A stretch of 64,000 nucleotides of DNA from a bacterium. Lineage in GTDB: Bacteria > Patescibacteriota > CPR2 > UBA1875 > JAJYID01. Positions 1,815 to 60,418 of this stretch are shown here, piece by piece; position 1 is the first letter of the stretch; each line of letters opens with the position of its first letter. The notes beneath the pieces are model-generated. The model had not been told where the DNA came from. It did no database searches and worked only from the letters and a program-made list of their open reading frames with translations. A program made the position numbers and the translations under genes. The DNA is taken from the NCBI GenBank assembly GCA_021787535.1, contig JAJYLR010000001.1, positions 301,501-365,500 on the forward strand, given 5' to 3'.

Positions 1815-1882
1815 CAAGTTTTGTGCTGTATTATTAGAAGATAAATTATTTAAAAAATCAGCAATGGCTGATTTTTTTGACT

Positions 1883-1995
1883 GTCATGCTGAGTGAAGCG
1901 AAAGCGCAATCAAGGAATGCCTTAGTATTGTGAATAGCGAATGAAAGGGATTTCTTCGCTCACTTTGAAAGACGAGTATCGGTCGAAATGACAAA
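1883..1995. repeat. MITE-like palindromic element E1 (~113 bp) with TGTCAT...ATGACAAA termini
   Basis: tgtcatgctgag...agggatttcttcgctc...tcggtcgaaatgacaaa; same termini and internal blocks as the element at 60186-60326. Confidence 0.5.
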
Positions 1996-3478: not shown

Positions 3479-5478
3479 ACCAGTCCTTGGGGATTAACAT
3501 CTATTTTCCATTTGGAACTAGTATATTTTACCACTTTTTCCGTGAACTCATCAAGATTTTCCTTTCCTTGAACCTTTAAAAGTATCTGCCAGCGATATTT
3601 ACCGTCTATTTTTGGTAAAAAAGCAGGGGAGGGTCCGACGAGTTCCACACCTTTCCCGTTCTTAATAATCTTCTGGATAATTTCTTTACTCATATTGCGG
3701 GATTCTTCCTCGCATTTTGCCGGATCTTTGTCTGAAAAAAGAAGATGTATGAGATTGGAATAAGGAGGATAGGAGAGCTCTTTTCTTTTGGGCAGCTCGC
3801 TCTCGTAGAAGGATTTATAGTCATGTTTGGCCGCCATTTTTAAGATAGGATTATCCGGATTGTAGGTTTGAAGTATTACCCGCCCGCGCTTTTTTCCCCG
3901 ACCGGTTCGTCCCGCCACCTGCATGATTAGAGAAAAGGCATGTTCGGAGGCGCGGAAGTCCGGTATATTTAGCATATTATCAGCTGAGATAATACCAACC
4001 AGATCGACATTTGGCAAATCCCATCCTTTGGCTATCATTTGGGTGCCGATCAGGATATCAAAACTTTTGTTCTTAAATTCTTCGTAGATATTCGCATGAT
4101 TTTTTCGAACCGAGTCGGCATCCATTCTTCTGACTCGTGCATTCGGAAAAAGACGCTTCACTTCCGACTCTATCTTCTGGGTGCCTTTGCCAAAGTATTT
4201 TATTGCATGAGATTTACATTTCGGACACACGGTCGGCACCACGGTTTTATAGTCGCAATGATGGCAGAAGAGGCCACTAACCTTGTCATTCCCGCGCAGG
4301 CGGGAATCTGTTATTTCGTGGTAAACAAGGGGGATTTCACAGTTTGGACATGTGACGACATACCCGCAGTCACGGCAGGAAACGAATGTTGAGAAACCCC
4401 GCCGGTTTATGAAAAGCACGGCTTGCCGGCTTTCCTGTAAGACATTTTCAATTTCTTCCTGAAGTTTCTCTGACAAGACAGATTTGTTTCCATACTGAAA
4501 CTCCTGAGCCATGTTGACAATTTGTACTTCAGGCATTTTGTCCTGGATATATCTTTCTTTCAGTTCATGAAATATGTACTTGCCGTTTTTTGCATAAAAA
4601 AATGTTTCAAATGATGGTGTGGCACTTCCCATTATTAAATATGTGCCTGTAACCTCACTAATTTTTTCGGCAACCTCGCGAGTTAGGTATCTGGGATTTT
4701 TATCTTGTTTGTAGCTGGTTTCATGCTCCTCGTCAATAACGATTAAACCAAGATTATAAAAGGGTAAGTATAGGGCGCTTCTGGAACCGATAACAATGTT
4801 TTTTTTGCCGCCTGCAACCTCTTTCCAGACCAGCGCTCTCTCGGTTTCTTTGAGGTAGCTGTGATAAAGCGCTACCTGGCCGGGAAATTTTTCCTCAAAT
4901 CTTGCGACCGTTTGAGGTGTCAAGGCAACTTCAGGCACTAGAATGATGGCCTGTTTGCCCGAAGAGATTACTTTCTCCAAAACTTCTAAATAAACTTCTG
5001 TTTTGCCTGATCCTGTGACGCCGAAAATCAGGTGCGGTTTATCCGGATGGGCCAGGATCACTCCGGCGATTTTCTTCTGATCCTCGGTGAGCAAATGGCT
5101 TTTTCTGATCCGGCGGCGAAATTTCTGAGACTCAGATATCCTTCTTTTTTTCAAAACGCCGGTTGGCAGGATAGTTTTTACGATTTCTGAAACAGGTGAA
5201 GCGTAGCGGTCGCGAAGCCAAGGGATTAGCTCGATTAAATGTTTCGGCAAGGGTTCACTCAAAACGGCCGTAATTTCTTTTGTATCAAACTCTGGCTTAG
5301 CTACAAAATCCAAAACTATCCCCGCGGATTTTTTACCGCGAAAAGAAAGAGAGACAATCTGGCCCGGTTTTATTTCATTTTCTAATTCATGAGGCACGGC
5401 ATAGGTAAAAAAATCTTTATTCCCGCTCGGCGCCGCCACAGCGCATAAAACATATTTCATAGCTTTATTATAAATCAC
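3475..5478 (-). CDS. priA: primosomal protein N' (replication restart helicase PriA)
   Basis: GVTGSGKTEVY Walker A, DEEH box, Cys4-Cys4 zinc-binding region. Confidence 0.9.
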   Translation of the reverse strand: MIYNKAMKYVLCAVAAPSGNKDFFTYAVPHELENEIKPGQIVSLSFRGKKSAGIVLDFVAKPEFDTKEITAVLSEPLPKHLIELIPWLRDRYASPVSEIVKTILPTGVLKKRRISESQKFRRRIRKSHLLTEDQKKIAGVILAHPDKPHLIFGVTGSGKTEVYLEVLEKVISSGKQAIILVPEVALTPQTVARFEEKFPGQVALYHSYLKETERALVWKEVAGGKKNIVIGSRSALYLPFYNLGLIVIDEEHETSYKQDKNPRYLTREVAEKISEVTGTYLIMGSATPSFETFFYAKNGKYIFHELKERYIQDKMPEVQIVNMAQEFQYGNKSVLSEKLQEEIENVLQESRQAVLFINRRGFSTFVSCRDCGYVVTCPNCEIPLVYHEITDSRLRGNDKVSGLFCHHCDYKTVVPTVCPKCKSHAIKYFGKGTQKIESEVKRLFPNARVRRMDADSVRKNHANIYEEFKNKSFDILIGTQMIAKGWDLPNVDLVGIISADNMLNIPDFRASEHAFSLIMQVAGRTGRGKKRGRVILQTYNPDNPILKMAAKHDYKSFYESELPKRKELSYPPYSNLIHLLFSDKDPAKCEEESRNMSKEIIQKIIKNGKGVELVGPSPAFLPKIDGKYRWQILLKVQGKENLDEFTEKVVKYTSSKWKIDVNPQGLV
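4284..4309 (-). repeat. Palindromic hairpin repeat copy inserted in frame in the priA zinc-finger region
   Basis: tgtcattcccgcgcaggcgggaatc; encodes DSRLRGNDK on the minus strand. Confidence 0.55.
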
Positions 5479-6766: not shown

Positions 6767-6905
6767 TTTTCATCAAATGCGCAATCTTAGGGCGGTGCTC
6801 TTTAAGAACATCGCCCATTTTCTTTACTTCAAGTAAAATTTACGCTACAATTTTGCATTAGTTGATAAGTTTTTAGTTGGTAAGTTACTAAGTTGTAAAA
6901 GGAAT

Positions 6906-6929
6906 GATTCTGGACAAGCCAGAATGACG
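6906..6929 (+). repeat. palindromic hairpin repeat (ATTCTGG/CCAGAAT variant)
   Basis: gattctggacaagccagaatgacg; identical core at 19969 and 43751. Confidence 0.5.
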
Positions 6930-6995: not shown

Positions 6996-8336
6996 ATGAA
7001 AAAGCGAAGGAATTGGATTAAGGTTGTTTTAATAGCGCTGCTTTTGGCAGCGGCTCTTGTTGTTGATTGGCCGGGAAAGGGTATACATATTACCTTTAAG
7101 CCGCTTCATATCGACTTGAAAGGCCCCGACTTTAAAATCAAACAAGGTCTCGATCTGCAGGGCGGGACGTCCATTACTTATAATGCCGATCTATCAAAAA
7201 CTCCAGCAAGCGAAAAACAGAATGCTATGGAATCGCTCCGAAAAGTAATTGAAAACCGAGTTAATGAATTCGGAGTGACAGAGCCGGTTATCCAGACTAC
7301 GAAAATGGGCGGACAGGACCAAATTACCGTGGAGCTTCCGGGGGTGAAGGATGTGAATCAGGCAATGGATCTGATCGGAAAAACTGCCCAGCTTGATTTC
7401 AAAGAATTAAGTTCTCAGGGTACACCCGAGAGTTTTGGTCTTACCGGCAAAGATCTAAAAAGCGCATCCCAGACTTTCGATCCCAATACGAACCAGCCGG
7501 AAGTTTCTATAGTCTTTAACTCGGACGGAGCGAAGAAATTCGAAGACGCTACGGCTCAAAATGTCGGCAAGCCGATTTACATCTTGCTTGACGGGCAGAT
7601 TATCTCCGCGCCGAAAGTAAATGAGAAAATATCAGGCGGGCGGGCGGTTATAACCGGCCAATTTGACGTTAAGGAGGCAAAGAATTTGGCGATACAGCTA
7701 AATGCCGGTGCGCTTCCCGTACCGATTCACATCGCCCAGCAGCAGACAGTCGGCGCGACACTGGGCCAGCAGGCGATTAAAGCGAGTCTTTTTGCCGGAG
7801 TGTTGGGAGTGATTCTAGTCATGCTCTTTATGGCGCTTTACTACCGCCTGCCCGGACTCGTGGCTGACGCCTCGCTGGTTTTATATGCGATTTTCGTTTT
7901 GGCTATTTTCAAAGTTCTGGCCATTACCCTTACCTTAGCCGGGGTGGCGGCATTTATTTTATCAATCGGTATGGCGGTGGACGCAAATGTTCTGATATTC
8001 GAGCGGATGAAAGAGGAGCTGCATCACGGCAAAAGCTTGAACGCTGCCGTTGAGACAGGGTTTAAACGCGCCTGGACGGCAATCCGCGACTCGAATCTGG
8101 CAAGTATTATTACGGCTTCAATCCTATTTTTATTCGGTTCCGGAACTATCAAGGGCTTTGCGGTTGTCCTTATTATCGGAGTTCTCGTCAGTATGTTTAC
8201 GGCCGTCAATGTGACTAGAACATTCCTTCGAATCGTTATTAAACAAAAGTTTCTGACATCGCCGAAGTTTTATCTGGGAGCAGGAAAGGAGACAGACCCC
8301 ACTTCATTTAAAAAATTACGCGGGGCGGGCAAATGA
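6996..8336 (+). CDS. secD: protein translocase subunit SecD
   Basis: Signal-anchor, large periplasmic domain, C-terminal 6-TM bundle; ATGA overlap with secF. Confidence 0.9.
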   Translation: MKKRRNWIKVVLIALLLAAALVVDWPGKGIHITFKPLHIDLKGPDFKIKQGLDLQGGTSITYNADLSKTPASEKQNAMESLRKVIENRVNEFGVTEPVIQTTKMGGQDQITVELPGVKDVNQAMDLIGKTAQLDFKELSSQGTPESFGLTGKDLKSASQTFDPNTNQPEVSIVFNSDGAKKFEDATAQNVGKPIYILLDGQIISAPKVNEKISGGRAVITGQFDVKEAKNLAIQLNAGALPVPIHIAQQQTVGATLGQQAIKASLFAGVLGVILVMLFMALYYRLPGLVADASLVLYAIFVLAIFKVLAITLTLAGVAAFILSIGMAVDANVLIFERMKEELHHGKSLNAAVETGFKRAWTAIRDSNLASIITASILFLFGSGTIKGFAVVLIIGVLVSMFTAVNVTRTFLRIVIKQKFLTSPKFYLGAGKETDPTSFKKLRGAGK

Positions 8337-13123: not shown

Positions 13124-14416
13124 ATGAACCAAAAAGAAAAGCTTATGAAAGGCGTGTTTTTCATTACGCTCGGATGCCGGCTCAATCAGGCGGAAACAAA
13201 TATGCTCAAAAATAATGCTCTTGAACGCGGATTTAGAATTGCTCAATCAGAGAGTACTGCGGATATTTTCATTATAAATTCATGCTCGGTTACCGATAAG
13301 GCGCAAAGAGAGACAAATAAACTTCTCAAAAATCTAACGGCCAAATATCCGGAGAAAAAAGCGGTCATAACCGGATGCGGAGCGCATGATGAACACAAAA
13401 AGTATGCATTTGTTGTAAGTAATGAAGATAAGAACAGGTTGTTCTCGTTATTATCACAACAATCCACGAAGCGTTGTCTTAAACCTTTTTCTCGTCATTC
13501 TGAACAAAGTGAAGAATCTCAGAGATCCTTCGTCGTTCCTCCTCAGGATGACGAAATATGTGGCAGAACGCGCCTCATGGTCAAGGTGCAGGAAGGGTGT
13601 AATAACTTCTGTGCATACTGTATCGTTCCTTATTTGCGCGGCAGGGAATATAGCTATGAACCCGAAAGAATAATCAGTGATCTTAAAAAAGCAGAAGAAG
13701 ATGGCTATAACGAGATAGTTTTATGCGGAGTAAATGTTGGCAAGTATGAGTATCACGATGTAAAATTGGCCGGTTTAATTCAAGAAATTCTTGTAAGAAC
13801 AGAAATCCCGCGTATACGCTTAAGTTCGATTAATCCCGATGATTTTTCAGACGATTTGATTGATTTGTGGGTAAAAAATGACCGTTTGTGTCCGCATTTC
13901 CATATCTCTCTTCAGAGCGGCTCGAATAGCGTTTTAAAACGCATGGGCAGAAGGTATAATACCAAGCAGTATGCTGAACTGGTTGCCAAAATTAGAAAGC
14001 GTGTTCCTGACGTACAAATTACAACTGATGTTATTGTCGGTTTTCCGGGTGAAACAGAAGGGGAATTTGCCGAAACAGTTGCGTTTGTGAAAAAAATAAA
14101 GTTTCTGAAAGTACATGTTTTCCGCTATTCTCCTCGTGAAGGCACAAGGGCTGCCGATATGGATGGCCAAATCAGCGAAAAAATTAAAAAGGAAAGAGCT
14201 GTAAAACTGCAAAAAATCGAGTCAGATGTGAGGCAGAGAACTTTACTAAACTACATTAGTAAAGAAGTCGAGGTACTATTTGAACAGGAGAAAAATGGCT
14301 ATTATTCTGGCTTTACCAAAAACTACATTAAAGTTTTGAAAGCAAGCAAAAAGGACCTGACGAATCAGATTACAAAGGTTACAATTAAAGCGCTGGACGA
14401 GAATCTAGTTGTTTAG
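13124..14416 (+). CDS. MiaB/MtaB-family radical-SAM tRNA methylthiotransferase
   Basis: N-terminal MTTase domain, CNNFCAYC radical-SAM motif, C-terminal TRAM-like region. Confidence 0.85.
   Translation: MNQKEKLMKGVFFITLGCRLNQAETNMLKNNALERGFRIAQSESTADIFIINSCSVTDKAQRETNKLLKNLTAKYPEKKAVITGCGAHDEHKKYAFVVSNEDKNRLFSLLSQQSTKRCLKPFSRHSEQSEESQRSFVVPPQDDEICGRTRLMVKVQEGCNNFCAYCIVPYLRGREYSYEPERIISDLKKAEEDGYNEIVLCGVNVGKYEYHDVKLAGLIQEILVRTEIPRIRLSSINPDDFSDDLIDLWVKNDRLCPHFHISLQSGSNSVLKRMGRRYNTKQYAELVAKIRKRVPDVQITTDVIVGFPGETEGEFAETVAFVKKIKFLKVHVFRYSPREGTRAADMDGQISEKIKKERAVKLQKIESDVRQRTLLNYISKEVEVLFEQEKNGYYSGFTKNYIKVLKASKKDLTNQITKVTIKALDENLVV
13493..13556 (+). repeat. degenerate MITE-like element in frame in the mtaB-like gene
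   Basis: tcgtcattctga...tcaggatgacgaaa inverted termini; encodes SRHSEQSEESQRSFVVPPQDDEI in the domain linker. Confidence 0.4.
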
Positions 14417-19929: not shown

Positions 19930-19996
19930 TGTCATCCGCGGACTTGATCCGGGGATCTAGATAAGGAAGGATTCTGGACAAGCCAGAATGACGAAA
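19930..19996 (+). repeat. composite palindromic element (tgtcatcc...ggattctggacaagccagaatgacgaaa)
   Basis: TGTCAT left end and GAATGACGAAA right end; contains the ATTCTGG/CCAGAAT hairpin. Confidence 0.5.
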
Positions 19997-23742: not shown

Positions 23743-24915
23743 TTGCAACATAATGCGAACATAGACAAGCTGATTGGTGTATATCCATTCAGTGCCCTGA
23801 CCAAGAAGGTTAATGAGGTGGCAGCTGCCGGAGTGGATGTTATCCGGCTGCATATCGGAGACGTTCTGGGGCCTATCACTTCTTCACCGGCGGATCTTAT
23901 GGAAAAGGAGATTGAACGTCAAAGAGAACGTGATTCTTTCAGGGGCTATCAGAATGAAGCCGGTACAGATGATACAAGAGAGATGGTAGCGAACTACATT
24001 TCTCGTCTTGCCGGCAAGGAAATCCTGCCAGAGGAAGTTTTCATCACTTATGGCATTAAGGATGAAATTCCTATTCTGATGTGGCTCTTTGACCGCAATA
24101 GCAACTTTGCGATCGAGAGGCCTGTCTATCCCGCATATGAAGGCGTTATCACCATATGCAGTGCAGGCAACATCACGTACATGGACTGTAACGAAGATAA
24201 TGATTTCATTCCGGATTTGCCGAATAAGGATGTCGACATCATGTTTCTCAATCGGCCGAACAATCCTACTGGCGCAGGAATGACTCTCGCACAGTATCAG
24301 GAGCGGGTTGACTGGGCGAATGAAAACGGTGCCGTGATCGTTCAAGATTCGGCTTACTCTGTTTTCGGTGAAGACGGATATCCGGAAAGCATTCTCGCGG
24401 CCAAGGATGCGAAACGTTGTTGCATTGAGATGTTTTCGTTATCAAAATCTCATGCCGCAACAGCGATGCGCGCCGGGGCTGTCATAGTTTCTCGTGAGCT
24501 TCAGTGTTCCAGCACGGATGATCTGTACACCAAGTGGACAACCATGATCGGTTTCATGAAAAATGGAGTCGGCCTTGAAAATCAGGCTTTCATCAGAGGT
24601 GCTCTAAGCCAGAGCGGCCTCAGAGAAAGTTATGAAGCCATCGATGTTTATAAGGATTCCGGTGAGCTTTTGAACAAGGGATTCCGTGATCAGGGTTATA
24701 CAGTCAGAGGCGGAGAAAATGCGCCGTACAGTCTGATCAAAGCTCCTAATGGAATGACCGGAAACGATCTTGCAGAGATTTTTCTTTCTCAGCAAGGTGT
24801 GGCTGTCGCCCCCACGGAAATATTCAATCTTCCGGGCTGGGTAAGGATCCATCATTTCATTACAGCCGAACGTGCCAAAGAAGCCCTGGATAGGATTGCA
24901 AATATAAATCTCTAA
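23743..24915 (+). CDS. class I/II aminotransferase, LL-diaminopimelate aminotransferase (DapL)-like
   Basis: HIGDVLGPI N-terminal motif, NRPNNPTG, SLSKSHA PLP-Lys region. Confidence 0.6.
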   Translation: MQHNANIDKLIGVYPFSALTKKVNEVAAAGVDVIRLHIGDVLGPITSSPADLMEKEIERQRERDSFRGYQNEAGTDDTREMVANYISRLAGKEILPEEVFITYGIKDEIPILMWLFDRNSNFAIERPVYPAYEGVITICSAGNITYMDCNEDNDFIPDLPNKDVDIMFLNRPNNPTGAGMTLAQYQERVDWANENGAVIVQDSAYSVFGEDGYPESILAAKDAKRCCIEMFSLSKSHAATAMRAGAVIVSRELQCSSTDDLYTKWTTMIGFMKNGVGLENQAFIRGALSQSGLRESYEAIDVYKDSGELLNKGFRDQGYTVRGGENAPYSLIKAPNGMTGNDLAEIFLSQQGVAVAPTEIFNLPGWVRIHHFITAERAKEALDRIANINL

Positions 24916-26459: not shown

Positions 26460-27752
26460 TTATTCTCCGCGAATCATTTTTGCAGTTTCGGATCTTCGGA
26501 TAAAATATTCACGGTATCGGTCAGAATGAATTGCCTCCTCCTCGCTGTCTGAGAGTTCGCCTTCCACTTGATCGACTACTATCGTCCACTTTTCGTCCAA
26601 CGTCTTTGCCAGGTATACTAGAATGCCATCAGAAAATCGAATTTCCTTAACACTGCGGTAGGTATTTCCAACCAGGCCATCGACACAAACCGCTTCTTCA
26701 TCTGGTACGCTTTTGACAACAAAGGCGAGATGCAGAGGATCCTCATTTAGGTAGCAGTAGAAGTGGGCTCCATTATGCCACCCTTGCGGCTTGCCGTCTA
26801 CAACGAAGGTTTCTTGGCCCTCAGCATTGGTTGCATAGAAGACGAATTTTCCATCTTCTGTGAAGAAGCCCTTCTTCGTGTCCTTGTACCAGTCGGTGAA
26901 TTTACCGTTAACGACCCAGGCCTTTTCCTTTCCCTCTATTTCCTGTGCGACAGGGTAGGCAAAGTTGCCGTTTAAGTAGACAGGATTGCCAAAATTCCAA
27001 CGATCTATGCTCTTGTTGTGCTTATCGAGCGGTTTTCCGTCGAGAATCCAGTACCAAATGTCTCCTTCGCTTACCCTCATTGCAATATGAATATCTGATT
27101 CATTCTCGAACAGATCCAGGGAAATATAGTCGAACCAACCCTGCTCCTTGCCATTTATGACATAAGTTTCTTTTTCCTTGTCATTCTTGGCTCGGAAAGC
27201 AAAGTATTCTTCTCCTCTCATGGGAAGCCAGCCATCGCCGACGCTTTTATAGAGCTCTGACACTTTATCTTCGAAAACGTATCCCCACTTTCCGTCAAGG
27301 GACACCAGGAAGTACTCGGGAAGCGCATCCAGATCCAAGTCGTGAATGCCCCTCATTAAGAAAGGCGAGTTGTTGGTATAGACTTCATCAAACCAGCCGA
27401 TTAGTCGGCCGTTTGAGATGATGCCCATTTTCCCATTTTCATCAGCCAGCTCAACGATCACTTTTGAATCAGCTGTCCAGATTTTCAAGATATCGTATTC
27501 TTTATCATCCAGGAAATATCCGGAGTACTTCCTTTCGGCAAGTTCTCTATCTATATACTGAAGAATACTCTCCAGACCGTGTCTCTTGTCTCCGTTTTCC
27601 TCGACATCTATCATTGGCAACAGTACGAACTCTTCAGCGGCGGTCCCACCCATATGCTGTTGCAAATGAAGATGCTTAATACTTGAGAGCGCTTCAATCG
27701 CTTGCTCGTTTGCTTCTTGGTTAGTTGGGCTCAGTGTCATCGAGATAATCAT
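26460..27752 (-). CDS. WG-repeat (beta-propeller-like) protein, 430 aa, no signal peptide
   Basis: At least six repeats of the type NGK..GWFD/DGKWGYVFED. Confidence 0.55.
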   Translation of the reverse strand: MIISMTLSPTNQEANEQAIEALSSIKHLHLQQHMGGTAAEEFVLLPMIDVEENGDKRHGLESILQYIDRELAERKYSGYFLDDKEYDILKIWTADSKVIVELADENGKMGIISNGRLIGWFDEVYTNNSPFLMRGIHDLDLDALPEYFLVSLDGKWGYVFEDKVSELYKSVGDGWLPMRGEEYFAFRAKNDKEKETYVINGKEQGWFDYISLDLFENESDIHIAMRVSEGDIWYWILDGKPLDKHNKSIDRWNFGNPVYLNGNFAYPVAQEIEGKEKAWVVNGKFTDWYKDTKKGFFTEDGKFVFYATNAEGQETFVVDGKPQGWHNGAHFYCYLNEDPLHLAFVVKSVPDEEAVCVDGLVGNTYRSVKEIRFSDGILVYLAKTLDEKWTIVVDQVEGELSDSEEEAIHSDRYREYFIRRSETAKMIRGE

Positions 27753-27761
27753 TTTTCCTCC

Positions 27762-28007
27762 TTAAGCCGGGATTTTATTTTCGTTGTGCGTTCTTTGAAG
27801 TTTGTCTCTTAGCTCAGTGATTTGGGCTATACCCCTATAGGGGACAGGGCAATCCCCCAAATACGCAAGTGGTTCATGCCCTCGTGTAGTTGCAGGGAAG
27901 GGGTTGATTTCGAATTTTTCTCGAGGTAAAGTCATCAAAATTTCCATTGCTTTATCTTTTTCGCCCTTAGCATCCAGTAAAAGCATGATTTTGTATTTGA
28001 GCGCCAT
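27762..28007 (-). CDS. small hypothetical protein (81 aa), paralogue of 28017-28247
   Basis: Shares MAL...LP...GI.QIT.LRDKLQ....IPA with the gene immediately upstream; 9-nt spacing. Confidence 0.5.
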   Translation of the reverse strand: MALKYKIMLLLDAKGEKDKAMEILMTLPREKFEINPFPATTRGHEPLAYLGDCPVPYRGIAQITELRDKLQRTHNENKIPA

Positions 28008-28016
28008 CTTTACTCC

Positions 28017-28247
28017 TTAAGCCGGGATTTGACCTTCGTCGTATATGCCTTGTAGTTTGTCTCTGAGTCTTGTGATTGCTCCAATACCCTGATAGCTGAA
28101 ATTTCTCCAGTAAGCGATTGGCGGCCAATTGGGTTCAGTCGGCAGAACTTTTACTTGAATTTCTTTTGGCAGAGAAAAGAGGATGTCAATCGCTTCCAAA
28201 CCTTCCTTTGAATGATCTGCCATTAGTAGTACTCGATTTAACGCCAT
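28017..28247 (-). CDS. small hypothetical protein (76 aa), paralogue of 27762-28007
   Basis: Internal ATG with RBS ggagaaaaa; the tandem duplicate pair heads a three-gene minus-strand operon. Confidence 0.5.
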   Translation of the reverse strand: MALNRVLLMADHSKEGLEAIDILFSLPKEIQVKVLPTEPNWPPIAYWRNFSYQGIGAITRLRDKLQGIYDEGQIPA

Positions 28248-28411
28248 TTTTTCTCCAATCGGAATAGTTTTCAAGGTGCGGAGGTGTATTTTAGCAATTG
28301 TAAAAACCCAAAACAAGTATACAGATTTTGGAATTTTCAAAATTCAAATGCCAATGTCCAATCAATTTTCAAGTTTTAAAATTTCAGACCAGAATAATTA
28401 AATTAAGGACT

Positions 28412-28440
28412 GGATTCCCGCTTTCGCGGGAATGACAAAG
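28412..28440 (+). repeat. palindromic hairpin repeat (ATTCCCGC/GCGGGAAT variant)
   Basis: ggattcccgctttcgcgggaatgacaaag. Confidence 0.5.
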
Positions 28441-39015: not shown

Positions 39016-39064
39016 GATTCCTGTTTTCGCAGGAATGACAGTAAAGGTTATAGGAATGACAAGG
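39016..39064 (+). repeat. palindromic hairpin repeat (ATTCCTG/CAGGAAT) plus a half-copy, just upstream of ileS
   Basis: gattcctgttttcgcaggaatgacag...aggaatgacaagg. Confidence 0.5.
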
Positions 39065-39070
39065 AATTGA

Positions 39071-42000
39071 ATGAAAAAGTTTGAGAAAGTAGATCCGAAA
39101 CCCGACTTTCCGAAAATTGATGAGGAGGTTCTTTCGTTTTGGAAAGATGAGAAGGTGTTTGAGCATACGCAGAAAAGGGATTCCTCGGCTCGTCGCTCCG
39201 CGAAGTCGCTCGGAATGACAGAGGGGAAGGATTCCGGACTGAGCCAGAATGACTCCACTTCGCTAAAGCTTCGCGAGGCAGGCAAAGGGGGTGAGAAGAA
39301 TTTTATTTTCTTTGAAGGGCCGCCGACGGCAAACGGCAGGCCTGGTGTTCATCATGTCCTTTCCCGTGTCTTTAAGGACATTATTCTCCGTTATAAAACT
39401 ATGCAGGGTTATCACATTGACAGAAAAGGCGGCTGGGATACTCACGGGCTTCCGGTTGAGCTTGAGGTGGAGAAAAATCTCGGCATTTCAGGAAAGCCGG
39501 ATATTGAAAAGTATGGCGTTGAGAAATTCAACAAAAAATGCCGCGAAAGCGTCTTTAAGTACGTCAAAGAGTGGGAGGAACTGACGAAAAAAATCGGTTT
39601 CTGGGTCGATACCAAAGATCCTTATGTCACCTACGATTCGAGCTATATCCAGTCGCTTTGGTGGGTGCTCGGCGAGGCCTGGAAGAAAGATTTGCTATAT
39701 GAAGGATACAAGGTTGTGCCATACTGTCCTCGATGCGGAACTGCTCTCTCGTCACACGAAGTTTCTCAGGGTTACAAAGATATTACAGAAAACACGGTTT
39801 ACGTTAAGTTTCCGGTCGAAGGCGAAAAAGACACATATTTTCTTGCTTGGACGACTACACCATGGACTTTGCCGGGAAACTCAGGACTTGCTTTTGGACC
39901 GAACATTAAATACGTAAAAGCCGAGTCGGAAGGCGAAAAATATATTCTAGCCAAGGATCGGCTGGAAAAGGTATTTGAAGGCAAGAAATATAAAATTCTT
40001 GGGGAGTTTTATGGCAAAGAAATCGTTGAGAGCATTTTCAATGGGCCGACGGAAGGCACGAAGCATTACAAACCCCTTTTCGCCGATGGTGCAAAGTTTA
40101 AAAAAGAAAAAGATACGGAAGAATATACAGTCATTATGGGTGACTTTGTTTCGACCGAAGATGGCACGGGTATCGTCCATATCGCGCCGGCATTTGGTGA
40201 AGATGACTATGAAGTAGGCAGAATACAAAATGGTTTATCTGTACTTATGACAGTTGATGAACAGGGCAATATGCTGACTGAAGTCGGAAAAGGGAAGTTT
40301 GCCAAAGATGCCGACTCACTCATTGTTTCAGATTTAAAAAAGCGGGGACTGATATTCAAAGAAGAAGAGTATACACACTCGTATCCGTACTGCTGGCGTT
40401 GCGGCACTCCCCTCCTTTATTACGCGCGGGACACTTGGTATATCAGAATGTCATCGCTTCGAAAGGAACTGGTTAAAAATAATGAAGAAGTACACTGGTA
40501 TCCGTCTCATATGAAAAATGGCCGTTTCGGCGAATGGATTCGAGAAGCCAAGGATTGGGCGCTGTCCAGGGAAAGATATTGGGGCACGCCGCTGCCGATC
40601 TGGAAATGTGATAAGTGTGGTAAAAAAGAATTAATTTCTTCGTATGAAGAGTTGGGTGATAAAACCGGTAAAAAGATTCCGGACGACTTTGATCCGCATA
40701 GGCCGTATATTGACGATTACACATGGAAGTGCGATTGCGGAAGTGAATTCAAGCGCTACACTCATGTCATAGACTGCTGGTTTGACTCCGGCGCCATGCC
40801 GTATGCGCAGTGGGGCTATCCTTCCGCCGCCGGCAGTGAGGAGGGATTTAAAACACACTTCCCCGCTGACTACATCTGCGAGGCGGTAGATCAGACGCGC
40901 GGCTGGTTCTACACATTGCTCGCTATTTCTACATTTCTTGGCAAGGGTCCGGCTTATAAACACGTAATTAGCTTGGGCCATATATTAGATGAAAAGGGTG
41001 AGAAGATGTCTAAGTCCAAAGGAAATGTGGTAAATCCTTGGGACGTTCTCTCGGCGCATGGTGCCGATGCGCTCAGATGGTATATGTATAGCGCGACCAT
41101 GCCGGGAAACCCGCGCAACTTCTCTGTCAAACTGGTCGGCGAAGCCAAAAGATTTCTGGTGACTTACTGGAATGTGTACAGCTTCTTTGTGACATATGCG
41201 AATGTTGATAATTACGTACCAAGCAGAAAACATGCAAATTCAGAAAACATTCTCGACAAATGGATCTTATCGCGCAAAAACAAATTGGTTGAGTCTGTGA
41301 CCAAGCATCTCGAAAGATATAATATTTATAAAGCTACCCAAGAAATCGAGCAGTTCATTGATGACCTCTCGAACTGGTATGTGAGACGTTCGAGGAGAAG
41401 ATTTTGGAAAAGCGAAAATGACACCGACAAAACCGCGGCATACGATACACTGTATGAAGTTCTTGTGGGCTACACAAAGGTTCTGGCGCCTTTTATGCCA
41501 TTTGTGACGGAAACCGTTTATCAAAATCTGGCGGGTGGCGGAAGTGTTCATTTGTCCGAATGGCCGAAGTTTGAGAAAGGTACAATTGATGAAAAAATAG
41601 AAACAGCGATGCAAAGTGCCAGAAGTATCGTCGAGGCGGGTCTGGCAGACAGAAACGAAAATGGCATTAAAGTGCGGCAGCCACTTATGTCTTTAAGCTA
41701 CGGTGGAACGAAGCTAGACGCGGCATTGGAGCAGATTATTGCTGAAGAAGTGAATGTCAAAGAAGTGACATTTAACGCTAAACTAAAAACGACCATTGCT
41801 TTAAATACGGAAATTACTGAAGAGTTAAAAGTAGAAGGTCTGGCGCGGGAGATTGTCAGAAAAGTTCAGGCGATGAGGAAAAAAGCTGGATTTAACGTGG
41901 AAGACAGAATCCATTTGTATTGGAGTACGGCTGATAAAGCAATTCAATCTGTATTTGAAAAGGAAAACGGCTATATCGCCAAAGAAACACTTGCCGAAAA

Positions 42001-42094: not shown

Positions 42095-42106
42095 GAGCAC
42101 AAGTGC

Positions 42107-42176
42107 TGTCATTCCCGCGAAGGCGGGAATCCAGACTTAATATTTTATAGATTCCCGCCTTCGCGGGAATGACAAG
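42107..42176. repeat. 70-bp MITE-like element: 26-bp perfect inverted repeats (tgtcattcccgcgaaggcgggaatcc) around an 18-bp spacer
   Basis: Between the ileS stop and the ftsW/rodA start. Confidence 0.6.
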
Positions 42177-42178
42177 AG

Positions 42179-43724: not shown

Positions 43725-43750
43725 TTTTTAGTGTTTAAAGATATTAATCT

Positions 43751-43779
43751 GGATTCTGGGCAAGCCAGAATGACGAAAG
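43751..43779 (+). repeat. palindromic hairpin repeat immediately upstream of rplU
   Basis: ggattctgggcaagccagaatgacgaaag. Confidence 0.5.
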
Positions 43780-45600: not shown

Positions 45601-45936
45601 CGCTTTTTATAGCCGCTTAGACGGCTAGCCGCAAGAGGCGGAATCGTGGCAATTTTATCACGCCTCTTCGACAAACCTATGGAGGAGAGGAACCCTCCCG
45701 AACCATTGGGAGGGTTCCCCCTCAAAAGTTTGTGAGAGATTGAGGAAATAGTTTTTATTTCCTCAGGCCTTCGCCACAAGGCATCAGGGAGCATATCGCA
45801 TGCTCCCTTTCTTATTGATAAAATCCTTGCTATTTTTTATGTTTTGTTATATAATTACCACCACGAAATCAAGGTAACCTCTGGGCTTACCTATTTTGTA
45901 CCTATTCATTCAATTACCTTGAAGGAGGTGAGATCT

Positions 45937-48144
45937 TTGCAGCCGCGTATATATCAGCAAGAATGTCTGGATGCCATCCAGACCGCACAGCAAGTAAATC
46001 AGCAGAATAAGACTTTGGTCGTGATGGCTACCGGACTCGGTAAAACTGTGGTTTCGGCCTTTGCTGTGCACCGCTTAATGCAAGAAGAACCTGGACGGGT
46101 TCTATATCTATGTCATCAGAATGATATTCTACGCCAAGCGAGAGCTGAATATCAGGAGGTACTTGACGGTTCCTATACTTATGGGTACTTTCATGGGGTG
46201 GAAAAGCATTTGCACAAAGTTGATGTGTTGTTTGCTTCATTCCAAACAATGGCCAAGAACCGCGAGCTTTTTAATAAGCGCGAGTTCAAATACATTATTG
46301 TGGATGAGGTACATCATGTGCAGGCTGCGACTTTTCGCCCTACGATAGAGTACTTTGACCCACAGCTTATGATAGGGCTGACAGCAACTCCTCATAGGCA
46401 TGATGGACTAGACATCACGGAATTGTTTGGTCAACCTGTATACAACTTGGGCGTTGCTGAGGCTTTAGCTCGGGGATATCTCTGTAAGGTTGACTATCGC
46501 CTGATGACGGATGAAATCCAAAACCTGGAGATGCTTGATACTCCTGTTGGCAAGCTCAACATCGCTAAACTGAACCGCACTATCTTTATCCCTAAAAGAG
46601 ATGAAGAGATTGTACGGATTATCGAGGAAAAAGCTGCAAAGATCATGCCTCATCGAGTTATGATCTTTTGTCCCTCGATACAGTACGCTACAAGGCTTTC
46701 ACGCATGATGCCCAAAGCAACAATTCTTCATTCAGGGATTACATCTTCTGAAGAGAAACGCAGAAGAATCGAAGCGTTTCGTAAGGGTGCGGTAAACATT
46801 GCACTCACTGTTGACATGTTCAACGAGGGCATTGATGTTCCGGAGGCCAATATTATCGTTTTCCTCCGATCAACACAGTCAAAAACCATTTTCCTGCAGC
46901 AGCTCGGAAGAGGTTTGCGTAAAGCTGATGGCAAAGAAAGTGTTGTTGTTCTTGACTTTGTTGCTAACTGCGAACGAATGGAGATGATCAATGAATTCCA
47001 CGAGAGTATAAAGTTCAGACAACAAGCTAGCTCTCAAGAAAGGGCGGGTGAATATCAGGGTACCGATTTGCCTGTAGAAATTGCTCTTGATAGTTTTGAG
47101 TTTAATGAAACGGCAAAACGGGTCCTCGATGTCATCGGTCGCGTCCGAATGAGTTATACTAAGGAATCCGTAGTGGAGCAGTTGCAAGCATTGGCTCAGG
47201 AAATCGGACGTAGACCGACAAAATCCAGTATCGAGATTGCTGCTAGAGAAAACAAGGTAGCTTCAGTGCCAAATATAAGGCAATTGTTTGGCACTCTGAC
47301 ATCCGCCTTGGCAGAGGCTGGGTTTAAACCAATCAAGAAAGATCGAGAAGGTCTCAAGCAACAAATACTCAAACTTCAGAGGCATTTGAAGGGCAGGGTT
47401 CCTTGCATAAAGGATCTCAATGAGTATAGAAAGGTGTTAAACCTTTCTGGTTTCGATGCCTTCATTCGTGAGTTCGGGACTTGGAATCAGGCCTTGCAAG
47501 CAGCAGGCATAACCCCCGTACATACCAAGTCTAAACCCCAGCACTTTAGTCGTGAAGAGCTCAAGAAACAGTTACTCAAACTTCAAGAGCACACAGAGAA
47601 AGAAGCCCCGGGTGTACGTGATCTTGAGGAACATAAGAGTTCCCTTGGATTGGCTAGCTTTGAGTCATTCAGGAAAGAGTTCGGGACTTGGAACTTAGCT
47701 CTCCAGGCAGTTGGTATACAACCTGATCAGGTGCATCATAATGTTACTAACGAAGAGCTCAAGCAACAGCTTGTCAAGCTCCGAGAGTATCTGGGAGCAG
47801 TTCCTCGAGTAATTGACTTGAAGCAACACAGAAAGGAGTTAGGAATCGCAAGTCACAAGGCGTTTTTCCGGCGGTTTGGTTCATGGAAGAACGCACTGAG
47901 AGAGGCCGGTCTTCTCAATGAAGTGATGGTATGTTCTCTCATTGAGGAGTTTGGAGAGAAAGGTGTGTATCGCAGCGCCATCGCAATGACAGCCAAACAA
48001 AATGGCAATCTGCGAAAAATACTGATCTCTCTTCAGCGAGACGGAAAGATCGGGTTTGTCCGGCGTGGAAGAATACCGGAACTCGATATTTTTATCTCAA
48101 CCAAGTACATTAGTAAGGAGAAACAGGGGGGTGGCATAAAGTGA
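45937..48144 (+). CDS. SF2 helicase (ResIII/DEAD-like core) with four HEAR repeats and a ~65-aa C-terminal domain shared with the adjacent sigma factor
   Basis: ATGLGKT (I), DEVHH (II), LTATP (III), QQLGRGLR (VI). Repeats of L..LQ..L...P...DL......LG...F...FG.WN.ALQ.AGI. TTG start after aggaggtg is preferred over the track start at 45844. Confidence 0.7.
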   Translation: MQPRIYQQECLDAIQTAQQVNQQNKTLVVMATGLGKTVVSAFAVHRLMQEEPGRVLYLCHQNDILRQARAEYQEVLDGSYTYGYFHGVEKHLHKVDVLFASFQTMAKNRELFNKREFKYIIVDEVHHVQAATFRPTIEYFDPQLMIGLTATPHRHDGLDITELFGQPVYNLGVAEALARGYLCKVDYRLMTDEIQNLEMLDTPVGKLNIAKLNRTIFIPKRDEEIVRIIEEKAAKIMPHRVMIFCPSIQYATRLSRMMPKATILHSGITSSEEKRRRIEAFRKGAVNIALTVDMFNEGIDVPEANIIVFLRSTQSKTIFLQQLGRGLRKADGKESVVVLDFVANCERMEMINEFHESIKFRQQASSQERAGEYQGTDLPVEIALDSFEFNETAKRVLDVIGRVRMSYTKESVVEQLQALAQEIGRRPTKSSIEIAARENKVASVPNIRQLFGTLTSALAEAGFKPIKKDREGLKQQILKLQRHLKGRVPCIKDLNEYRKVLNLSGFDAFIREFGTWNQALQAAGITPVHTKSKPQHFSREELKKQLLKLQEHTEKEAPGVRDLEEHKSSLGLASFESFRKEFGTWNLALQAVGIQPDQVHHNVTNEELKQQLVKLREYLGAVPRVIDLKQHRKELGIASHKAFFRRFGSWKNALREAGLLNEVMVCSLIEEFGEKGVYRSAIAMTAKQNGNLRKILISLQRDGKIGFVRRGRIPELDIFISTKYISKEKQGGGIK

Positions 48145-59475: not shown

Positions 59476-60063
59476 TCACTGCAGTCCGGCAACCTTGCTT
59501 GAATCGAGCATAAATGCCACGGCGTTTAGCATTTTTTTCAGGTTGCCTTCTTCTGCACAGACGGTAATGACATTTCGGTCAATGACGATTCCTTGCTGTA
59601 CCGGAATCGCGTTAATCGCCTCAATTGCTTTTCGTGCCTCCTCTGATTGTAAGAAGACTCGCTTTCCATAGAGAATACCGCTTCCATAGAGAATATTGGC
59701 ACCCCTATGATAGCCGGCTATGACTTTCTCTCGATAATCCATCTCTATAACCAGTGTAATTAATAATTCATCCATTCTCATTATAGTGTTGTTTTCTTTG
59801 CTAACACCGGCTAAGATGAACGCATCGAGATCATCTGCTTTTACTTGGCTCAATAATTTCGTTTCTTTTACCACAGTACCATCAGAACTTACTGTCTTCT
59901 CGTTCTGAGTTAACGGAACGGCGATTAAATCAACCGCGGCCCCATTTTCGACAAAGAAATTCCTGGCTGTGACAACCTGCTCCTCGAGAAAACCTGTCGC
60001 GATAGGGATACCGATCTTTTTACCTGTAAGATTAGATTTCAAGAAACTCAACTCCTTTCTCAA
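59476..60063 (-). CDS. DJ-1/PfpI family protein (no canonical nucleophile Cys evident)
   Basis: KKIGIPIATGFLEEQ..AFILAGV flavodoxin-like fold signature. Confidence 0.55.
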   Translation of the reverse strand: MRKELSFLKSNLTGKKIGIPIATGFLEEQVVTARNFFVENGAAVDLIAVPLTQNEKTVSSDGTVVKETKLLSQVKADDLDAFILAGVSKENNTIMRMDELLITLVIEMDYREKVIAGYHRGANILYGSGILYGKRVFLQSEEARKAIEAINAIPVQQGIVIDRNVITVCAEEGNLKKMLNAVAFMLDSSKVAGLQ

Positions 60064-60185
60064 ATTGTATAAAGTGCTCTATTGCCAAGACTCCAATGTC
60101 TATAGGGAATAGCTTAAGTATCTACTATAACATGACCGAATAAAAATGTCAAAGTTTTTAAGACCGTGAATTCAAAAACCTTCTC

Positions 60186-60326
60186 TGTCATCCCGAGCCC
60201 ATTCGACAAGCTCAAGATAAACTCCGCGGTAGCGGAGTCGAGGGATCCCTTTAAAAAATTAAATTCAAGTACAGTTTAAGGGATTTCTCCGCTCGTCACT
60301 AGCGTGATGTCGGTCGAAATGACAAA
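60186..60326. repeat. MITE-like palindromic element E2 (~140 bp), same family as 1883-1995
   Basis: tgtcatcccgag...agggatttctccgctc...gtcggtcgaaatgacaaa. Confidence 0.5.
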
Positions 60327-60418
60327 TATGGGCGGGGTTTTTGAATTCACGGTAAGAAATAAGAGTTTTATAAATTTGTCTATAGAAGCGCTTACGGGTG
60401 TGGGGTAATATATTGCTC

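Follow-up and report, generated by a model that had tools for sequence, protein, structure and literature searches.

Tags-outward dimers of long-loop hairpin units in a Patescibacteria genome and their relationship to GIY-YIG gene-bearing elements

Introduction

Two related intergenic sequences, element A (1882-1995, 114 bp) and element B (60186-60326, 141 bp), lie far apart in a 64-kb stretch of a Patescibacteria contig (JAJYLR010000001.1; the whole 64,000-nucleotide stretch is hereafter the window, to which coordinates refer), and raise the question of what kind of repeat they represent. The original prediction, made from the letters of the window, had regarded them as two copies of a ~125-bp element resembling a miniature inverted-repeat transposable element (MITE), or else as members of a structured-RNA gene family. 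The analysis presented here points instead to a family of hairpin units, each preceded by a (C/T)GTC tetranucleotide tag. With a probability of roughly three in four, A and B are HH dimers (tags outside) of long-loop CGTC/TGTC-tagged repetitive extragenic palindrome (REP) hairpins, the gene-less counterparts of elements that carry a gene for a small GIY-YIG nuclease, which would have driven their spread.

Two bodies of published work provide the framework for this reading. The CGTC-tagged REPs carry a CGTC or TGTC tag, 8-9-bp stems that begin with AT, loops of 4-5 nt (of other length in a few families) and a tail approximating CCA; HH dimers with spacers of ~20-100 bp predominate, and copies are found inside genes, often those for replication and repair (Di Nocera, De Gregorio & Rocco 2013, BMC Genomics 14:522). 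The same study equated dRS3 and the Rickettsia repeat RPE-6 with CGTC-1 and RPE-4 with CGTC-4, found no dedicated transposase, and saw no gene for a REP-associated tyrosine transposase (RAYT) or IS200 transposase flanked by CGTC units. More recently, the Neisseria repeat NTS (CGTCATTCCCGCGMAVGCGGGAATCYRG), which contains the dRS3 repeat, and a degenerate Ssn-related motif (SRM; HGTCWYN(0-2)YYVSBRHN(0-5)WNVSBRGN(0-2)RNCYNB) have been linked across bacteria to SsnA, a 94-aa single-domain GIY-YIG nuclease whose clade corresponds to CDD cd10448 (GIY-YIG_unchar_3) (Chenal et al. 2025, Nat Commun 16:2388). The Neisseria and Wolbachia proteins bind the hairpin as single-stranded DNA (ssDNA) only and cleave it a few nucleotides to the 5' side of the tag; binding depends critically on the C that follows the palindrome, and cleavage on the GTC that precedes it. 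The ssnA gene is often flanked as NTS-ssnA-NTS, an arrangement called insertion sequence (IS)-like, with mobility only hypothesised (Chenal 2025).

Results and Discussion

Elements A and B are dimers of hairpin units

Inspection of A and B shows that their 5' ends are alike (CTGTCAT[GC]C[TC]GAG), that their outer ends read TGTCAT/ATGACAAA, that their 3' ends are one identical 17-mer (TCGGTCGAAATGACAAA), and that a 17-nt inner block (AAGGGATTTCT[TC]CGCTC) is common to both. The shared termini and block of the original prediction are hence confirmed, and they exceed what shuffled sequences produce: at up to 3 mismatches the 17-mer occurs 3 times in the window as compared with 0.27 in shuffles, none of 100 shuffles reaching 3, and the inner block occurs 3 times as compared with 0.6. 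The setting had likewise been described correctly, with A lying between the convergent genes for a response regulator (1431-1814, +) and Fmt (fmt, 2020-2970, -), and B between the divergent genes for a DJ-1/PfpI protein (59476-60063, -) and an FAD/Rieske oxidoreductase (60398-61957, +). The internal complementarity ascribed to both holds for B, with a z of -3.6 for the single-strand DNA fold, and is marginal for A (z = -2.0).

The notion of two copies of one element survives only in the shared ends. Homology between A and B is limited to the right-hand unit, ~48 nt long (1947-1995 and 60280-60326); the left units are of different subtypes and the spacers are unrelated. Therefore, A and B each consist of two hairpin units paired with their tags outward, and are not two copies of one 125-bp element; they are, further, only two of five such dimers in the window.

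The units of this family share a plan: the (C/T)GTC tag, a stem starting with A-T/T-A, a variable interior, the closing half of the stem and a C(CC) tail. All four A/B units carry TGTC, and CGTC is found in the copy of A in a syntenic relative (GCA_021790235.1, here L182; 88% amino-acid identity in PriA and 82-90% nucleotide identity). Their AT-first stems include ATTTC/GAAAT in both right units and ATCCC/GGGAT in the left unit of B, and the tail is CCC(T) in the right unit of A and in both units of B, the canonical units of the window having CCA or CTA/CTG. GTC stands directly 5' and C directly 3' of the palindrome in three of the four. The left stem of A is decayed in the window (ATGCT/GGAAT) and is followed by G; its counterpart in L182 (CGTCATTCC-AAGTGAAGCGAAAGCGCAGTCGA-GGAATCC) retains an intact 5-bp basal stem (ATTCC/GGAAT) followed by C. 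The A/B units combine this 5-bp basal stem with 27-50 nt between the stem halves, and the units at 4284, 28410, 42107 and 42147 have an 8-bp stem and a 4-nt loop.

The bases immediately flanking the elements are GAC|…|AAC for A and CTC|…|AAT for B. B is additionally enclosed by a perfect 18-bp inverted repeat (Table 1); elsewhere, flanking inverted repeats of at least 10 bp are found at 3 of 76 dimers, with ~0.2 expected, and the CGTC-1 dimers of H. neapolitanus lie within a palindrome whose letters are curiously similar (…GAAAaACC--dimer--attcacgGGTaTTTC…; Di Nocera 2013).

A long-loop variant disseminated across phyla

The consensus of the A/B units is TGTCAT-YYC-GASCGA-[5-30 nt, often a small hairpin]-GAGCSGAG-RRAT-CCC. 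The published SRM motif matches neither A nor B, nor the gene-bearing elements of contigs L181 and L036 described below, and it fits not one of the 174 long-loop units, among which are those of A and B; therefore, the search relied on a relaxed definition of the structure and on a custom pattern. By construction of this pattern all 174 long-loop units carry TGTC, and their partner units, which it does not constrain, carry TGTC or CGTC. In GTDB representative genomes the pattern is found at a minimum of 117 loci, the chance expectation being estimated at ~0.003. Among the matches listed are Patescibacteria of the Doudna-, Falkow-, Magasanik-, Morani-, Lipton- and Saccharibacteria and the Gracilibacteria, as well as Clostridia, Gamma-, Alpha- and Deltaproteobacteria, Acidobacteriota, Verrucomicrobia, Dehalococcoidia and Bacteroidales. 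The ATTTC subtype to which the right units of A and B belong was recovered at 61 metagenome loci. Among viral contigs only one, of 34,401 bp, carries the pattern, and it has the same length as a contig of a Zavarzinia metagenome-assembled genome (MAG; loci L049 and L077), for which reason the repeat is not regarded as phage-borne.

The variable positions of the basal stem form Watson-Crick pairs in 103 of 108 distinct units, as compared with 34 expected if the positions were independent, and a second position pair, S/S', is complementary in 107 of 108. No simple helix that would account for the latter covariation could be derived; it may involve tandem G·A pairs. The non-Watson-Crick combinations comprise 2 G·T and 4 C·A, i.e., there is no excess of G·T. 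The covariation of the stem, a check proposed along with the original prediction, is strong.

The dimeric arrangement is typical of the variant as a whole. Among 118 units with enough flanking sequence, an inverted partner lies within 200 nt of the tail side in 57, giving a tags-outward dimer; head-to-head partners are seen for only 4, and tandem partners for 16 and 7. In the genome-contig set dimers span 61-243 bp, typically ~105, a range into which A and B fit, and a left unit may be joined to a right unit of another subtype. The 10 nt that precede the tag are rich in pyrimidines. A direct repeat of 2 bp or longer flanks only 2 of the 57 dimers, as compared with 3.6 in a shuffled-pairing control. 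Hence, the condition that was to refute the original prediction, the existence of only these two copies, does not hold, as many further copies exist. No target-site duplications emerge in the 57 dimers. Solo units show no orientation bias relative to the gene strand (38:30).

GIY-YIG genes bracketed by long-loop units

The same units delimit small genes. In eleven loci (L036, L042, L043, L080, L083, L087, L115, L131, L149, L162 and L174) tags-outward units flank an open reading frame (ORF) of a single type, with the pattern Y-x-Y-I-M-A-S…G-T-L-Y-x-G-x-T-N-D-L…E-G-F-T-K-K-Y, which encodes a single-domain PF01541 protein of 85-102 aa; ORFs with this pattern in the loci fetched give proteins of 96-102 aa (E ~1e-16). 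With the L181 locus, 12 flanked GIY-YIG genes of one subfamily are seen in all, the units standing ~10-90 bp from the gene and the full unit-gene-unit elements measuring 404-547 bp. A second GIY-YIG subtype (L087, 941-1207) has no flanking units. The protein family has 4,350 matches at E <= 1e-5, named 'GIY-YIG nuclease family protein' and coming from Patescibacteria, WS5, Parcubacteria, Doudnabacteria, Absconditabacterales and Deltaproteobacteria, and its nearest relatives in the PDB are the UPF0213 proteins 1ZG2 and 1YWL.

Element B resembles these gene-bearing elements. Its right unit aligns by blastn over 49 nt, at 93.9% identity, with a unit at one end of the GIY-YIG element of L162 (405 bp), and it is 94.7% identical to the right unit of a 91-bp dimer in L145. 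Further, the unit-gene junctions in L036 (…GGGATCCCTTAAAAAAGC-ATG and TAA…GAAAAGGGATT…) resemble the two ends of the B spacer. These similarities suggest that B might be an internal-deletion derivative of a gene-bearing element.

The window itself contains no GIY-YIG gene. An element of this type is found in what is very probably the genome of the window. On L181 (2876-3166) the gene for a 96-aa PF01541 protein, P0016, lies between two long-loop units (TGTCATTCCGACCGCC…GGAGGAATCCC on one side and GGGATTCCTCCGCTC…GGTCGGAATGACA on the other), which together form an element of ~416 bp. Proteins 100% identical to the PriA and FAD oxidoreductase of the window are recorded with a longest contig of 635,771 bp, as is P0016, and P0016 was found in Logan run SRR13170411, which also yields a contig (L001) identical to the window across A; hence, there is a strong case that the window and L181 belong to one genome. 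Exact-protein look-ups for the neighbours of A and B returned no record for the Fmt and DJ-1 proteins. The P0016 gene is situated 70 bp upstream of comEC and beside a gene for an XerC-like integrase. P0016 compares well with SsnA in length (96 vs 94 aa) and in the placement of the catalytic Tyr/Tyr/Glu positions (10/20/67 vs 6/17/64); its residue 10, a tyrosine in 112 of 113 homologues, is a histidine that replaces the 'GIY' tyrosine, the other catalytic residues being conserved.

L001 (1963 bp, reached via the response regulator protein), which belongs to an independent assembly of the same organism, breaks exactly inside the 3' terminus of A (…CGGTCGAAATGA), and many GIY-YIG homologues lie on contigs 0.5-2 kb long. 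Short-read assemblies appear to be broken up by the repeats.

Turnover between close relatives and insertion into genes

Comparison with L182 shows that units and dimers are gained and lost between close relatives. A is present in L182 and must therefore pre-date the split of the two lineages. It differs at 11 of 114 positions, as compared with ~6% in the intergenic flanks, its right unit differing at 2 of 49 nt. Since its left stem is intact in L182 and lost in the window, A is probably an old, decaying relic, and B would be a better-preserved gene-less derivative. No B-like element was found upstream of the oxidoreductase homologues, the nearest of which are only 63-67% identical and lie in regions where synteny is not conserved.

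A canonical unit has entered priA of the window: the 24 nt GTCATTCCCGCGCAGGCGGGAATC (4285-4308) are absent from L182 and nine other orthologues, and no duplication is seen at the junction. As compared with PriA structures in the PDB, the window protein has 10 extra residues (DSRLRGNDKV) in the Zn-binding region. The Zn-ribbon domain PF18319 is recognised in 8 of 9 other aligned orthologues and is missing from the window PriA and its WS5 orthologue, the two that have inserts. The insert of the WS5 protein (P0128, alignment columns ~424-445) is an independent, unit-like one of 20 aa (…KVRDSSALVGITGK…) at the same site, suggesting that this position is tolerated or preferred.

Other conserved proteins are similarly affected. 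The isoleucyl-tRNA synthetase (IleRS) of the window has ~35 extra residues (nt ~39170-39274) relative to that of T. thermophilus, with two units inside, and in the mtaB-like gene a dimer occupies the inter-domain linker. The MtaB-like protein of L182 has a 43-aa insert derived from a 94-nt A/B-type dimer (TGTCATTCTGAGCG…CCCTTTAAAAACAAAGAAAAGGGATTTCTCCACTCG…TCGGTCGAAATGACA), as well as a further 20-aa unit-derived insert, both absent from the window, and upstream of secD L182 has a different unit at a different distance. As L182 thus shares A, lacks the priA unit and has an extra A/B-type dimer, the family is one that turns over.

The complement of units in the window

The family was first found with a repeat finder and a scan for YGTCAT/ATGACR. 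A relaxed structural search, requiring GTC, then an AT-first stem with 5 or more Watson-Crick pairs, then C, finds 21 GTC-AT…AT-C hairpins in the window as compared with 1.7 in dinucleotide shuffles (maximum 4), of which ~17 are credible units once obvious coding coincidences are removed; the strict SRM motif finds 5, as compared with 0.14 in shuffles. Ten of the units pair into five inverted dimers (A, B, 13493-13553, 19930-19993 and 42107-42175), all five with tags outward (Table 1). The canonical dimer (42105-42177) has a z of -12.6 for its DNA fold, and the long-loop unit in ileS hardly differs from the left end of the GIY-YIG element in L036. In the window, the forward strand is antisense to the local gene in all six solo units whose orientation could be judged by eye, a bias that is absent from the larger set mentioned above. 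A Doudnabacteria MAG (L115, ~7548-7711) has a dimer of a different subtype directly upstream of map, in the adk-map spacer, where the window likewise has a dimer.

Two further sequences listed by the repeat finder were rejected as chance occurrences, as 24264-24284 encodes the NNPTG motif of an aminotransferase and 41393-41423 is ordinary IleRS coding sequence.

Table 1. Hairpin units, dimers and enclosing repeats of the window
Coordinates	Strand	Feature	Remarks
1882..1921	+	A, left unit: TGTC tag and decayed hairpin ATGCT…GGAAT-GCC	compared with L182
1922..1946		A, spacer	no similarity to the B spacer
1947..1995	-	A, right unit, long-loop subtype: TTTGTCAT-TTC-GACCGA…GAGCGAAG-AAAT-CCC on the minus strand	basal stem ATTTC/GAAAT; fits the cross-phylum pattern
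4284..4308	+	single canonical unit, TGTC-ATTCCCGC-GCAG-GCGGGAAT-C, in priA	in frame, part of …DSRLRGNDK… in the Zn-ribbon; strict SRM match
6899..6929	-	single unit, GATTCTGG-ACAAG-CCAGAAT-GACG	upstream of secD
13493..13553		tags-outward dimer in mtaB/miaB-like radical-SAM gene	in frame (…SRHSEQSEESQRSFVVPPQDDE…); also in L182
19930..19993		tags-outward dimer	takes up the space between adk and map
28410..28437	-	single canonical unit, TGTCATTCCCGCGAAAGCGGGAATCCAG on the minus strand	strict SRM match
39016..39041	-	single unit	upstream of ileS
39175..39253	-	long-loop unit (39175-39222) and degenerate unit (39229-39253)	in frame near the IleRS N-terminus
42107..42175		canonical tags-outward dimer of two NTS-like units	each differing from the Neisseria NTS consensus at one position
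43745..43775	-	single unit	upstream of rplU
60163..60180		left arm of perfect 18-bp inverted repeat around B, ACCGTGAATTCAAAAACC	unique in the window
60186..60249	+	B, left unit: TGTC-ATCCC…GGGAT-CCC	inner hairpins GAGC…GCTC and CTCCGC-GGTA-GCGGAG
60250..60279		B, spacer, TTTAAAAAATTAAATTCAAGTACAGTTTAA	two ends resemble the unit-to-gene junctions of the gene-bearing L036 and L162
60280..60326	-	B, right unit, long-loop subtype	basal stem ATTTC/GAAAT
60336..60353		right arm of perfect 18-bp inverted repeat around B, GGTTTTTGAATTCACGGT	unique in the window

Placement among known repeat systems

The relationships of the family can be gleaned from its likenesses to systems described earlier. With the CGTC-tagged REPs it shares the TGTC tag, the AT-first stem, the C-rich tail, the HH dimers, the intragenic copies and the occurrence of dimers in larger palindromes, and canonical units of the window such as that at 42107-42134 fit CGTC-1 exactly. 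The A/B units differ from these REPs in their 5-bp basal stem and in their 27-50-nt structured interior with the conserved GASCGA…GAGCSGAG blocks; additionally, the hosts here are Patescibacteria and MAGs of many phyla, as opposed to the mainly alphaproteobacterial hosts of the CGTC REPs. With the NTS/SRM-SsnA system the family has in common the GTC 5' and the C 3' of the palindrome, a small GIY-YIG gene flanked on both sides and hundreds of copies in some genomes; five units of the window fit SRM, and that at 42107-42134 departs from the NTS consensus by a single mismatch, whereas the long-loop units miss SRM altogether. The RefSeq set of that study was without genomes of the Candidate Phyla Radiation (CPR), and its text mentions neither Patescibacteria nor 'Candidatus'; further, where mobility was hypothesised there, presence/absence differences are seen here (Chenal 2025).

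The REP/REPIN-RAYT systems (Nunvar 2010; Ton-Hoang 2012; Bertels & Rainey) resemble the family in having tetranucleotide-tagged hairpins, inverted doublets, a flanked single-copy gene and no target-site duplication, ssDNA hairpin recognition being a feature of REPs and REPINs; they differ in having a GTAG tag and an HUH/Y1 transposase in place of (C/T)GTC and a GIY-YIG nuclease. The IS200/IS605 elements and the palindrome-associated transposable elements (PATEs) are comparable in being small and in having subterminal hairpins at their ends, which in IS200/IS605 are read as ssDNA, in having gene-less miniature derivatives and in lacking target-site duplications. In IS200/IS605, unlike here, both cuts are on the same strand, the left and right ends are asymmetric and the enzyme is of another family; the ends in the present elements are inverted copies.

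These comparisons, together with the flanked genes, underlie the reading proposed at the outset. By analogy with SsnA, the GIY-YIG protein would recognise the units as ssDNA hairpins, and it would drive their spread and turnover in the way that a RAYT does for REPINs and the TnpA of IS200/IS605 for PATEs. We infer that the CPR-type GIY-YIG protein probably acts on the long-loop units and causes them to spread.

Several points weigh against this reading. First, a tags-outward dimer puts the two predicted cuts on opposite strands and outside the element, and the mechanism must therefore differ from the single-strand excision ('peel and paste') of IS200/IS605. Second, the demonstrated role of SsnA in Neisseria is the restriction of transforming ssDNA and not transposition (Chenal 2025). 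Third, the A/B units fail the published SRM motif, and the fold of A itself is weak. Fourth, the equivalent of the His change in P0016, SsnA Y6A, binds and does not cut (Chenal 2025), on account of which P0016 is possibly impaired in catalysis; it may bind without cutting, in which case another enzyme or copy may act. Finally, the loci that associate units with GIY-YIG genes were picked via the unit itself, so that the support they give consists of cases and one internal control, the unflanked subtype, as opposed to an unbiased genome-wide statistic.

Alternative explanations

An alternative that we regard as unlikely, but which fares best among those considered, is that the units are REPs or REPINs moved by a RAYT of the IS200/IS605 type (Y1) or by another host or IS enzyme, the GIY-YIG gene being a passenger or a frequent target. 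The architecture is indeed REPIN-like, with multi-copy inverted hairpin doublets, some of them intragenic and none with a target-site duplication. Moreover, the possibility that RAYTs or other transposases move CGTC REPs was left open (Di Nocera 2013), and P0016 lacks the GIY tyrosine. This explanation has to contend with a tag that is (C/T)GTC and not GTAG, and with the failure of the earlier survey to find a RAYT or IS200 gene flanked by CGTC units (Di Nocera 2013). No Y1 transposase was seen among the ORFs of the window, the part of the genome that was covered. A passenger or target gene is also at odds with the tags-outward flanking of 12 genes of one subfamily while a different subtype is unflanked, and SsnA homologues specifically bind and cut such hairpins in vitro (Chenal 2025).

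Somewhat less credence is given to the idea that the units are a host-domesticated DNA signal with no current mobility, i.e., sites at which an Ssn-type nuclease processes ssDNA, for instance that taken up via ComEC. The position of the organism's own GIY-YIG gene just upstream of comEC speaks for it. CPR bacteria are thought to be dependent on DNA uptake, which can be counted on the same side. Additionally, SsnA with NTS lowers the transformation of N. meningitidis ~5-fold (Chenal 2025). Such a signal leaves unexplained the insertion of units into essential genes and their rapid gain and loss between relatives, and A decays at or above the rate of its flanks. In any case, it is compatible with and not exclusive of the GIY-YIG-driven origin preferred here, as a host role, such as the processing of incoming ssDNA seen in Neisseria, could coexist with it.

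The classical MITE of the original prediction, a deletion derivative of a DDE-transposase IS with terminal inverted repeats (TIRs) bound as double-stranded DNA and a target-site duplication made on insertion, is very improbable. A and B do resemble classical MITEs such as Correia/NEMIS and Nezha in their size of ~100-150 bp, their inverted TGTCAT/ATGACA ends, their intergenic position, their multiple copies and a capacity to form a long hairpin. Unlike those, they have neither target-site duplications, whether in the 57 dimers or at the priA insertion, nor TIRs that match a DDE-transposase IS. What would be the TIR is itself a complete hairpin unit, found alone and inserting alone as well, a dimer may combine units of two subtypes, and the gene-bearing relatives encode a GIY-YIG nuclease and not a DDE transposase; no transposase domain was detected in the unannotated ORFs of the window either. 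The claim of a non-autonomous mobile element therefore holds in a broad sense, on account of the GIY-YIG element architecture and the presence/absence differences from L182, and fails for the classical MITE.

Least probable of all is that the units are small structured RNAs or cis-regulatory RNA hairpins (terminators or stabilisers) and the covariation that of an RNA structure: the stems do covary strongly, A stands just after what appears by eye to be a terminator-like hairpin at the 3' ends of two genes, and many REPs have been suggested to act as RNA elements (Di Nocera 2013), but Rfam gives no match, whether at the gathering threshold across the window or at E <= 1 for both loci, promoter and terminator scans call no terminator-like site at A or B and place B upstream of the promoters of its divergent region, units occur in both orientations without gene-strand bias and in frame within ORFs, the G·T excess is lacking, the left stem of A is decaying, and SsnA does not bind the RNA form (Chenal 2025). 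The structured-RNA gene family of the original prediction is accordingly not supported.

Implications for mobile DNA and genome annotation

What is new here is a long-loop unit of distinct structure, which goes undetected by the published search motif and is present in MAGs of many phyla. The same unit ends both GIY-YIG gene-bearing elements and gene-less dimers, which is the autonomous/non-autonomous pattern expected of mobile DNA, and single units and dimers are cleanly gained or lost between two close CPR genomes, essential genes included. A wider and distinctly tentative proposal, which we hold to be more doubtful than not, is that unit-GIY-YIG-unit elements, dimers and solo units could constitute a widespread class of mobile DNA in which a ~96-aa GIY-YIG nuclease mobilises via ssDNA hairpin ends, a kind of transposase outside the DDE, HUH/Y1, serine and tyrosine classes, perhaps active now in Patescibacteria and capable of clean 24-nt in-frame insertion into essential genes (priA, ileS and mtaB). 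If it is true that the nuclease mobilises the units, it would represent a new transposition chemistry and a source of more sequence-specific ssDNA nucleases with new specificities.

There are also practical consequences. The repeats break assemblies, as where L001 ends inside A, and inflate the number of 'hypothetical protein' calls. They further add peptide segments to conserved proteins and can thereby defeat domain models, as with the Zn-ribbon of PriA.

Other features of the window

Rfam at the gathering threshold finds nothing in the 64 kb, tRNAs included. The segment 194-1367 (~1.1 kb) contains an ORF (479-1276, 265 aa) without a Pfam match and is missing in L182, which has 53 bp in its place; it is a lineage-specific insertion between a DHH-family gene and the response regulator gene. 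A 91-nt direct repeat with 74% identity (27750-27840 and 28005-28095) marks two tandem paralogous small ORFs on the minus strand (27762-28007 and 28017-28340), the second of which has no Pfam match. At 45844-48144 is encoded a 766-aa SF2 helicase (ResIII/Helicase_C), with four C-terminal 'homing endonuclease associated repeats' (PF18780) that correspond to the D3 direct repeats at 47343-47783. The window has a GC content of 43% and a GC skew of +0.10, with most genes on the + strand, and its best relatives are Patescibacteria MAGs at ~65% amino-acid identity.

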